Part shown: in pieces, positions 39,923-41,476 of the stretch
How the letters are laid out: every line of letters starts with the position of its first letter
How positions within the stretch are numbered: the first letter of the stretch is position 1
Origin: Escherichia coli
Lineage (GTDB): Bacteria > Pseudomonadota > Gammaproteobacteria > Enterobacterales > Enterobacteriaceae
NCBI RefSeq assembly: GCF_013315695.1
Contig: NZ_CP054353.1
Reading direction: 5' to 3' (one strand)
DNA length: 64,000 bases
The notes under the pieces: model-generated
Seen by the model: only the letters and a program-made list of their open reading frames with translations
What the model was told of the DNA's origin: nothing
Databases searched by the model: none
Made by a program: the position numbers and the translations under genes

Positions 39923-41476
39923 TTAAATTTCAACGACCCGAGACGTCGCATGATGTAATTTTTCCGTAATCACCATTTCAGTGACCCGCTTAATATCGGC
40001 ATCATTAAAAAAAGCGGTAACATAAGCGACCGGCATAGTGACTGTAGGCAAATTAATTGTCGAAATAATCAGTTCGATATTGTCAGGCAAAACCTGTGAT
40101 AAATTCGCTGCTGAAATAACATCAACAATCGTCCATTCAGGAAATGCTCGCAGAATACGGCTTTTCAGTAGATGCGAAGTTCCGATTCCGGTTGAACAGA
40201 CCAGTAATACGCGTTTACGGGCAATTTGCCGCTCCATCGCAGCCTGAAAATGAACGGTCAGGTAACCCACTTCATCCTCGCTCACTGCATTCTCACCCCA
40301 GGTTTTAAATATCTGATTCACCACATATTGCGTCAACCGCCAGACATCCGCTAATTCTGCTTTAATATCTTCCAGCAATGGATTACGGATATGAATGCGA
40401 TAATTTAGTCGGTTAATCAGCGGCTTAATATGAACCAACAAGCCATCATATAATGCGCTGTCTTCACTAAAATCGCAGTCCATGATGTCACTGAATACCG
40501 TAATTAAACGCCAGGTAATCAGACGCGCTTCATTGCTGGCCTGCATATGCGAAATAATGCTCACATCTTTTTGTCCATCAATCGCCACACCTGATGAAAT
40601 GATATATTGATAAATAAACCAGACTTCATCATCGGGCAATGTATGTGCAATTCGTTGTTCTATCTTATGAATCATCTGACTGGCAACATTAAAGATATTT
40701 TCATCATATTGCCTGGTTTGATCTTCTTCTCTTGATAACGCATTCCCGTGCGTGTTGCGATACATCATAATAAGGATGTGAGTAAAAATGTTAACGTAAT
40801 AAGGTTCTCCCAAAGACCAACTTAATTCATTTTCCATATCCAGTAACAATGACTGGACAAATAACACTTCTTCCTCTCCAAAATAATGGACTAATGCTTT
40901 ATAGCTTCCGGGATCCAGACGTGAATACACGACACCTTGCGGCTCATTATGGTTAATAATGCCGTTAATCAGTAATGCCATTGCCTGTCGGACTTGCCCT
41001 TCACTTCCCTCAATGTGCGTACCACTTGGGCTGCGGATCAACGATAACCCCAACGGCGCAAGCCAGGACTCAATTACTCTCAGGTCATTAACAATAGAGG
41101 CTCCGCTGATAAAGTAGCGTTCTGACAATTTACTGATCGACGTTTCATTCGGTGTTTCACTTAATAACTGCGACGCTATTTTAACGCGCCTGGCATTATT
41201 CATTACACCATCAATCTCTTCACATTCTGCTCCCAACAAATGATCAAGATGCAGCAAATCAGCAATATTCTCCGCGCTTAACATCACACCCGCGCCAGCA
41301 CGCTTCTCAACACTTATTCTCCATTGCCCCAGCCATTGCTCAAGTAAACGTAAATCACGTTGAATGGTTTTTTCCGAAACATTTAAATAGCCGGCAATCG
41401 TAACAATAGTCGTATATTCCCTTCGTGGTAGAAGGAATCGTAATAATCTGTTTTGTCGCGAGGTAATCATTTGCAT
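39923..41476 (-). CDS. PRD-containing transcriptional regulator with HTH and C-terminal EIIB/EIIA-like domains (LicR/MtlR-like)
   Basis: 517 aa; N-terminal wHTH, central PRD-like repeats, LLVCSTGIGTSHLLK EIIB-like motif; first gene of the operon. Confidence 0.65.
   Translation of the reverse strand: MQMITSRQNRLLRFLLPRREYTTIVTIAGYLNVSEKTIQRDLRLLEQWLGQWRISVEKRAGAGVMLSAENIADLLHLDHLLGAECEEIDGVMNNARRVKIASQLLSETPNETSISKLSERYFISGASIVNDLRVIESWLAPLGLSLIRSPSGTHIEGSEGQVRQAMALLINGIINHNEPQGVVYSRLDPGSYKALVHYFGEEEVLFVQSLLLDMENELSWSLGEPYYVNIFTHILIMMYRNTHGNALSREEDQTRQYDENIFNVASQMIHKIEQRIAHTLPDDEVWFIYQYIISSGVAIDGQKDVSIISHMQASNEARLITWRLITVFSDIMDCDFSEDSALYDGLLVHIKPLINRLNYRIHIRNPLLEDIKAELADVWRLTQYVVNQIFKTWGENAVSEDEVGYLTVHFQAAMERQIARKRVLLVCSTGIGTSHLLKSRILRAFPEWTIVDVISAANLSQVLPDNIELIISTINLPTVTMPVAYVTAFFNDADIKRVTEMVITEKLHHATSRVVEI

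Follow-up and report, generated by a model that had tools for sequence, protein, structure and literature searches.

The regulator of the Escherichia coli frz operon as a probable MtlR/LicR-type PRD activator without a fused EIIA domain, and its candidate operator

Control by HPr-dependent licensing and by inactivation through phosphorylated enzyme II (EII~P) of the phosphotransferase system (PTS) is established for the Bacillus subtilis activator MtlR (PMC8560693, PMC3217849), for which a review of the PRD-containing virulence regulators (PCVRs) lists the sites H230, H289, H342, H399, C419 and H599 (PMC8560693). The PCVRs themselves have no terminal EIIA-like domain, and this five-domain layout defines the family (PMC8560693). 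At the B. subtilis promoter PmtlA, which has TTGTAT at -35, a palindromic MtlR site reaches the -35 element, and class II-type activation was proposed by the authors (PMC3217849). Here, we analysed a 64,000-nt stretch of E. coli DNA (assembly GCF_013315695.1, contig NZ_CP054353.1; hereafter the window) and describe in it the 517-aa PRD-type regulator encoded at the head of the frz operon, for which we use our own label FrzR.

The frz operon was described by Rouquet et al. 2009 (J Bacteriol 191:4427) in BEN2908, an extraintestinal and avian pathogenic E. coli (ExPEC/APEC) strain, and the BEN2908 genome paper, citing Rouquet et al. 2009, lists its genomic region 27 (GR27), 7,227 bp between yicH and yicI, as the 'frz operon'. 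According to a review, frz is transcribed as one operon, helps cells to survive when oxygen is restricted in late stationary phase and promotes the ON orientation of the fim switch (type 1 fimbriae). It has served as an APEC/ExPEC marker since 2009, with genotyping primers given in PMC6238794. In the window, each of these primers has an exact match (0 mismatches), one at 41052-41071 and the other at 40229-40248. The two sites lie within the FrzR open reading frame (ORF) and span 843 bp, which is the published amplicon size; therefore, the 'frz' marker is the FrzR regulator gene. The locus is the frz operon because the yicH..yicI position and size, the reported transcription as a single operon, the primer and amplicon match and the boundaries against K-12 all agree. 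Both the gene and the locus are already known and are not a new observation.

Of 5426 complete E. coli genomes, 1606 have the FrzR gene, almost all of them as a single chromosomal copy: one of the 1608 matches is plasmid-borne, and one genome has the gene twice. The alleles are mostly 95-99% identical to the one studied here, with at least 99% identity in only 20 genomes. The islet is accessory, absent from K-12 and enriched in extraintestinal pathogenic E. coli. In avian and human extraintestinal E. coli, it is an established marker for genotyping and a determinant of fitness and adhesion. This analysis leaves its classification unchanged and adds a corrected domain map of the regulator (no EIIA, not an antiterminator) with the residues His233, His349, His409 and Cys427, a candidate operator and promoter at 41543-41597, with conservation from Vibrio to E. 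coli and a recognisable counterpart in Bacillales, a link to EIIA-bearing Bacillales homologues, and an EIIC deletion.

Domain architecture and regulator class of FrzR

The sequence-only reading of the window had proposed a 517-aa regulator with an N-terminal helix-turn-helix (HTH), PRDs and fused EIIB- and EIIA-like domains, of LicR/MtlR architecture. The ORF is sound: the same 1554-nt coding sequence (CDS) is annotated by RefSeq in 100% identical strains, and its ATG start codon is preceded by AAGGG. A Pfam search for HTH, PRD, PTS_EIIB and PTS_EIIA_2 domains bore out the N-terminal half of the proposal, with matches to HTH_11, to the Mga HTH and to PRD in two stretches (107 bits, the best at residues 324-413). 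The C-terminal half held in part. A marginal PTS_IIB match and the conserved motif LLVCSTGIGTSH, which occupies residues 424-435, fit an EIIB-like domain, while PTS_EIIA_2 gave no match even at E<=10 in Pfam. The CAT RNA-binding domain was likewise without a Pfam match at E<=10. A family profile recovers the PDB entries that the structural model matches (see below) and, weakly, GatB (5gqs, E 0.002). The layout is thus HTH_11, Mga HTH, PRD1, PRD2 and an EIIB(Gat)-like domain (Table 1).

With 31 homologues as its basis, AlphaFold gave a model (pLDDT 76.9) in which two winged-helix units and two helical bundles are joined by a four-stranded alpha/beta domain at residues 422-485 and then a terminal helix to residue 516. 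In this model, the 19 residues past the EIIB-like domain form one helix, and an EIIA domain does not fit in FrzR because only this helix follows to residue 516/517. FrzR is without a fused EIIA; the EIIA is encoded by the next, separate gene. Searched at full length with Foldseek, the model matches AtxA (4r6i, E 4.7e-14), EF3013/MafR (3sqn, 1.8e-11), MgaSpn (5way, 1.5e-10) and AcpB, followed by the LicT PRDs. The global TM-scores of these structural matches are low, 0.3-0.4, because the domain packing differs. The top NCBIfam match is the AcpB/EbpR/MafR subfamily (NF053736), which covers residues 5-164 only and, at 83 bits, stays below its cut-off of 130; therefore, FrzR is not a member of that subfamily.

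In the alignment to the LicT PRDs (1tlv), His233 corresponds to LicT His100, Tyr291 to the His159 position, His349 to His207 and His409 to His269. His233, His349, Cys427 and His435 are invariant across the alignment of 31 homologues. His409 is kept in 21 of 21 short forms and is mostly Tyr in the 653-684-aa proteins of the Bacillales tier (see below). By residue numbering only, the FrzR sites lie within 2-10 residues of the first five MtlR sites, with Tyr at the second. From its sequence, we assign FrzR to the DNA-binding PRD-type transcription factors of the MtlR/LicR/ManR design, minus the terminal EIIA(Mtl)-like domain. The LicR/MtlR comparison of the sequence-only reading thus stands for the kind of regulator and fails for the terminal EIIA, which is found only in Firmicute relatives. 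The RefSeq name 'BglG family transcription antiterminator' is misleading because the CAT RNA-binding domain is absent; it reflects the PRDs alone. In the original description of the operon by Rouquet and colleagues, the protein is said to have been called a PTS activator of the Mga family; our literature searches returned nothing further on the regulator.

A candidate operator and promoter upstream of FrzR

When the upstream regions of four genera were aligned, two conserved islands stood out in otherwise diverged sequence. The stronger one reads TGTCC-N7/8-GGACA-NN-(A/T)TTTAGTATTGT and contains a palindrome whose arms are invariant across E. coli, Klebsiella, Salmonella, Pectobacterium and Vibrio. 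In the 64-kb window, the palindrome TGTCC-N7-GGACA has one copy, with 0.14 expected by chance. Upstream of each orthologue examined there is one copy, except in Vibrio, which has two, the second before an EIIA-EIIB-EIIC sub-operon. Homologues in Bacillales have a related upstream motif, GGACATATTTTAGTAT: in Peribacillus, TGTCC-N10-GGACA with TATTTTAGTATGT faces the PTS operon, and in Paenibacillus, TGaCC...GGACATATTTTAGTATT lies ahead of the regulator.

We scanned 100,044 species genomes for GGACANNNTTTAGTATTGT and obtained 116 stretches, about the chance expectation for 16 specified bases, and examined 80 of these loci. The full palindrome was present in 41 instances. In 36 of them, a regulator homologue on the same strand has its residue 1 99-225 nt downstream; one instance, in Vibrio salinus, precedes an EIIA homologue, and in the other four the locus ends too early. 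All testable full-palindrome instances (37/37) are therefore upstream of a FrzR or FrzA homologue, FrzA being the label used here for the free-standing EIIA. Half-motif instances without the palindrome had a homologue nearby in 0 of 40 cases. This is strong comparative evidence that the palindrome is a functional site tied to FrzR, and it makes the palindrome a strong candidate for FrzR's own operator.

The conserved flank of the palindrome extends up to a putative sigma-70 promoter (Table 1). TTGT and TAnAnT hexamers occur at fixed spacing in six promoters, separated by a 16-17-nt spacer that is not conserved. By analogy, the geometry of the frz operator and promoter resembles that of PmtlA. 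The palindrome is unlikely to be an intrinsic terminator or attenuator, in view of its conservation pattern and of its positions, before a PTS sub-operon in Vibrio and facing the PTS operon in Peribacillus.

Two further elements were observed in the same region. The second conserved block, GATCACGATTATTCATCACGAAAATGTGATCT (41641-41672, minus strand), is common to E. coli, Klebsiella and Salmonella, is shortened in Pectobacterium, and contains ATCAC/GTGAT inverted repeats and a sequence that matches the left half-site of the CRP consensus. We rejected AAATGTGATCT (41641-41652) as a CRP site, only its left half matching the consensus, its right half being poor in E. coli and its predicted centre lying near -105. 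In the predicted 5' leader of FrzR, a hairpin GAAGCUCU...GGGGCUUC is located at 41500-41522 on the minus strand, and the whole predicted leader folds with -19.7 kcal/mol (z -2.1). At the hairpin position, the leaders of Salmonella and Klebsiella differ in sequence from this one, and these sequences also seem able to pair when the alignment is inspected by eye.

Proposed regulation and alternative explanations

FrzR is probably the MtlR/LicR-type, DNA-binding PRD activator of the frz operon, without an EIIA domain, controlled by PTS phosphorylation and acting via the upstream palindrome. A FrzR dimer would bind TGTCC-N7-GGACA abutting the -35 element of the islet's own promoter and would activate, in class II fashion, one transcript carrying its own gene and those for EIIA, EIIB, EIIC, two aldolases, the ROK kinase and the cupin isomerase. 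As predicted from residue conservation, phosphorylation of PRD2 by HPr~P at His349, and perhaps at His409, would be required for FrzR activity and would couple the operon to catabolite control. With no substrate, EIIA~P or EIIB~P of the operon would phosphorylate Cys427 and/or His233 and switch FrzR off. That a PRD protein can be activated in an HPr-dependent manner in E. coli has been shown for BglG.

Several observations weigh against this model. The PTS_IIB (PF02302) score of FrzR is marginal, 24.2 bits against a gathering cut-off of 23.6, and the EIIB-like domain of AtxA-type proteins is used for dimerisation and not for phosphotransfer (PMC8560693). The second PRD1 histidine is replaced by Tyr291, and this position is Tyr in 29 of the 31 homologues. 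Finally, a consensus scan did not pick up the -35 and -10 hexamers, and flagged the palindrome as terminator-like.

The alternative that survives best is compatible with FrzR as a PTS-controlled activator and concerns this strain only. The EIIC gene here has 963 bp instead of the 1092 bp of the full-length gene (junction 38678-38690). The 129-bp deletion falls between 13-bp direct repeats (SMQG...SMQG) and, in the protein alignment, drops residues 128-170 (43 codons), including the hydrophobic stretch LMPIMVLPVLSTIIGGLLMMTLI, a transmembrane helix. Among 1605 frz-positive complete genomes, the full-length EIIC segment is present in 1603 and missing in two, one of which, the UK blood isolate AF3, has the same 963-bp CDS. 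An EIIC allele without one membrane helix should disable the permease, and because of this loss the substrate-driven phosphoryl drain and substrate sensing by FrzR are probably lost here. The circuit in this strain is therefore probably non-inducible, with its sensing broken. Whether an intact FrzR is then locked off, with dephosphorylation blocked by the EIIC deletion, or whether the operon is decaying, is a narrower proposal, which we regard as a genuine possibility somewhat short of probable. The removal of a hydrophobic helix and the rarity of the deletion (2/1605, one a blood isolate) speak for it. On the other hand, the deletion is in frame, all other frz genes are intact, and strains with full-length EIIC have a 100% identical FrzR. 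Moreover, deletion of the mtl transporter in B. subtilis leads to constitutive and not null expression (PMC3217849), so that it is uncertain whether the circuit would be locked off or on.

It is unlikely that FrzR is a PCVR-like (AtxA/Mga) global regulator in which the EIIB-like domain only dimerises, which escapes control by its own PTS and whose main targets lie elsewhere, for example at the fim switch. The five-domain layout without EIIA is the same as in PCVRs, the best structural matches are AtxA, MafR/EF3013 (3sqn) and MgaSpn, the top NCBIfam match is the AcpB/EbpR/MafR subfamily, and the frz operon is reported to promote the ON state of the fim promoter. However, the subfamily score of 83 bits is below the 130-bit cut-off, and, unlike in PCVRs, the histidines of the PRDs and the cysteine of the EIIB-like domain keep the positions that they have in LicT and MtlR and do not vary between phyla. 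FrzR is also strictly syntenic with the PTS operon and with its own operator candidate, and the operator motif occurs nowhere else in the window.

The polarity of FrzR could also be reversed. A repressor of the frz promoter, to which the closeness of the palindrome to the promoter would be suited, is still less likely, as the site lies upstream of and abuts a weak -35 element (TTGTnn), which is the MtlR activator geometry and does not overlap the -10 element or the start, and as all characterised members with the FrzR architecture are activators (PMC8560693, PMC3217849).

We give almost no credence to a BglG/LicT-type RNA-binding antiterminator acting on a RAT/terminator element in the leader: the RefSeq product name, the alignment of the PRDs with LicT and GlcT and the terminator-like flag on the palindrome with its T-rich sequence point that way, but the CAT domain is absent at E<=10, two HTH domains occupy the N-terminus, the full-length fold matches the DNA-binding AtxA and Mga, and the leaders of the regulated genes gave no such target, the regulator-EIIA gap being only 26 nt and sequence, not pairing, being conserved. 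The 5-bp arms of the palindrome are invariant while its inner positions vary uncompensated, leaving only a 5-bp stem in most species. This fits recognition by a protein and not an RNA hairpin because the arm sequence is conserved and the pairing is not.

Relatives, genomic context and comparison with known systems

Homologues of 516-525 aa with 50-80% identity were found in Salmonella, Klebsiella aerogenes, Citrobacter, Pectobacterium, Brenneria, Pantoea, Erwinia, Vibrio and Celerinatantimonas. After these come, at about 40% identity along all 517 aa, proteins of 653-684 aa from Paenibacillus, Peribacillus, Priestia, Bacillus and Sebaldella. By sequence, the nearest relatives outside the gamma-proteobacteria are Bacillales proteins. 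The extra tail of about 145 aa in these long homologues has a weak PTS_EIIA_2 match at best, and a sequence search with it against the PDB gave no match. Its predicted structure (pLDDT 83) has the EIIA(Mtl/Fru/Ntr) fold, with Foldseek matches to 1xiz (4e-6), 3oxp, 1a3a and PtsN. The position that we take, from the EIIA motif, to be that of the active-site histidine reads GINIIKG or GLVITTGG in these tails, and the histidine is apparently lost.

Together, FrzR (517 aa) and the EIIA (156 aa) would make about 673 aa and so be as long as the Firmicute homologues, which would be consistent with gene fission. We rejected this, since the E. coli EIIA has no similarity to the Firmicute tails (phmmer, E<=10) and a separate EIIA gene accompanies the long regulator at the Firmicute loci.

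Linkage of the regulator to PTS genes is conserved in seven genera. The loci of Pectobacterium, Salmonella and K. aerogenes have the E. coli gene order. The Paenibacillus locus contains the regulator, EIIA, EIIB, EIIC and an aldolase; that of Peribacillus has the same gene set plus ROK, with a lyxose isomerase gene beside a divergent regulator. In Vibrio, the regulator and EIIA are followed by EIIA, EIIB, EIIC and an epimerase. The Vibrio cassette (Vibrio sp. EA2, locus L003, 9584-12483; Vibrio salinus, locus L032) thus has two EIIA genes and two operator-promoter modules, one before regulator-EIIA and one before EIIA-EIIB-EIIC, and a ribulose-phosphate 3-epimerase gene follows instead of the aldolases.

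Two further claims of the sequence-only reading fared well: the gene heads an accessory PTS operon, as fructose-family EIIA, EIIB and EIIC genes follow it in an islet absent from K-12, and the link to Firmicutes is seen in Bacillales relatives with about 40% identity, the same neighbouring genes and a related upstream motif. A 'Firmicute-like, horizontally acquired' origin of the cassette is a reasonable interpretation because of these relatives with their shared neighbourhood and of a break in G+C content within the operon. A bolder scenario, which we hold to be doubtful, is that a gamma-proteobacterial MtlR-type lineage shed a degenerate EIIA and converged on the AtxA/Mga layout, FrzR being a Gram-negative PCVR counterpart that would tie PTS phosphorylation to type 1 fimbrial switching, and that the whole cassette, including an operator and promoter that can still be recognised, moved between Bacillales and gamma-proteobacteria.

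The EIIA gene starts 26 nt downstream of the FrzR gene, and the gaps between the frz genes are 11-80 nt. These gaps, together with the terminator-like hairpin after the last gene, fit transcription as one unit. The genes for FrzR, EIIA and EIIB (39094-41476) have 41-44% G+C and a G+C at third codon positions of 34-42%, against 52-56% and 52-58% for EIIC, both aldolases and the ROK kinase (35323-39069). This compositional break suggests a mosaic origin of the cassette.

Table 1 Coordinates of the frz islet, the regulator and the associated elements in the window
Feature	Position	Strand	Basis
Regulator gene of the frz operon (FrzR), 517 aa	39923..41476	minus	ORF, domain matches, RefSeq CDS, frz primer matches
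HTH_11 DNA-binding domain, residues 7-63	41288..41458	minus	Pfam PF08279, 52.2 bits
Mga-type second HTH, residues 100-169	40970..41179	minus	Pfam PF05043, 50.9 bits; profile match to N-terminal part of AcpB, 9atx
PRD1, about residues 204-297	40586..40867	minus	Alignment to LicT PRD 1tlv; profile matches 3rio, 6twr
PRD2, residues 324-413	40238..40507	minus	Best Pfam PRD stretch; LicT alignment
EIIB(Gat)-like domain, residues 422-498, with LLVCSTGIGTSH and Cys427	39983..40213	minus	Pfam PF02302; alpha/beta fold; GatB 5gqs profile match
Candidate operator: palindrome TGTCCGGATTACGGACA (41581-41597) and conserved flank TTTTAGTA up to the -35 hexamer	41571..41597	minus	Conservation and linkage
Putative sigma-70 promoter: -35 TTGTTG (41565-41570), 16-nt spacer, -10 TATATT (41543-41548)	41543..41570	minus	Inference
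frz islet, 7,125-bp insertion between yicH and yicI	34623..41747	.	BLAST of the window against K-12 MG1655; replaces 24 bp there
Free-standing EIIA, fructose/mannitol family (FrzA), 156 aa	39426..39896	minus	PTS_EIIA_2 121 bits; TIGR00848 127 bits, cut-off 103.5
EIIB, fructose family	39094..39408	minus	PTS_IIB 67 bits; TIGR00829 97 bits
EIIC, fructose family, with 129-bp in-frame deletion, 320 aa instead of 363	38107..39069	minus	BLAST against strain MS 21-1; protein alignment
Class II ketose-bisphosphate aldolase 1	37244..38095	minus	F_bP_aldolase 254 bits
Class II ketose-bisphosphate aldolase 2	36303..37163	minus	F_bP_aldolase 305 bits; NF006042 526 bits
ROK-family sugar kinase	35323..36255	minus	ROK 246 bits; RefSeq CDS boundaries
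D-lyxose/D-mannose-family (cupin) sugar isomerase, last operon gene	34662..35342	minus	RefSeq annotation of 99.9% identical strain; Lyx_isomer in orthologous loci
Terminator-like hairpin directly 3' of the last operon gene	34627..34652	minus	Consensus scan: 9-bp stem, then T run

Hairpins are located at both edges of the islet, at 41723-41755 and 34627-34652, and the hairpin after yicI (CCGGATACG...CGTATCCGG) lies at the spot of a different hairpin in the 52-nt yicH-yicI spacer of K-12. At the islet edges, no integrase and no flanking direct repeats were seen. Elsewhere in the window lies the tRNA-Sec gene selC (45774-45868). In near-identical strains, a short fragment of a RhuM-family pseudogene comes after it (about 45950-46080), and the arrangement looks like the scar of a selC-integrated island. 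A low-GC block (35-40%) at about 50300-64000, downstream of yicS, is annotated in near-identical strains with an SycD/LcrH-type chaperone, YopB/SseC-type and IpaD/SipD-type type III secretion translocators, the inverse autotransporter IatC and EilA, a HilA-like regulator whose gene has a frameshift in AF3. At about 2000-8000, where the G+C content is very low (31-38%), synteny with isolate AF3 would place the waa/rfa lipopolysaccharide core cluster, which in AF3 includes O-antigen ligase, glycosyltransferases, rfaY and waaO.

Compared with known systems, K-12 FrvR of the cryptic frv PTS operon is also an HTH_11 regulator in a fructose-like PTS operon of E. coli, but it has PTS_EIIA_2 and no Pfam PRD match. 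Paralogy with FrzR was rejected, as the two are related no further than the HTH (BLASTP E 0.14) and FrvR is without a PRD. The antiterminators BglG, LicT and SacY share the duplicated PRD module and the aligned histidines, whereas FrzR has HTH and EIIB-like domains and no CAT RNA-binding domain. The PCVRs (AtxA, Mga, MgaSpn, MafR, AcpB) share the five-domain layout without EIIA, give the best full-length structural matches and have a parallel in the reported link of frz to expression of an adhesin, type 1 fimbriae. In contrast to them, FrzR, which is only 12-18% identical, has positionally conserved PRD histidines, is gamma-proteobacterial and is embedded in a catabolic PTS operon.

The 653-684-aa homologues of Bacillales and Sebaldella are closer, with about 40% identity, EIIA, EIIB, EIIC and aldolase neighbours and the related upstream motif, but they keep the EIIA-fold tail and mostly have Tyr at the His409 position. 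The frz operon of BEN2908 agrees with the locus here in the yicH..yicI site, in approximate size (7.1 kb here vs 7.2 kb there), in gene content and in the published primers and amplicon; the strain studied here has the rare 129-bp EIIC deletion. B. subtilis MtlR, like LicR and ManR, has the same HTH_11 and Mga HTH, two PRDs and an EIIB(Gat)-like domain with a cysteine. The candidate sites H233, H349, H409 and C427 of FrzR track MtlR H230, H342, H399 and C419 by numbering, and both regulators are linked to a cognate PTS operon with a palindromic site, for FrzR a candidate one, that abuts the -35 element. FrzR differs from MtlR in having no C-terminal EIIA(Mtl)-like domain, in Tyr for the second PRD1 histidine, in its putative operator (TGTCC-N7-GGACA, compared with the MtlR-binding region TTGTCACAGTCATGTGCCAA in the primer table of PMC3217849), and in the co-transcription of its gene at the head of the operon.

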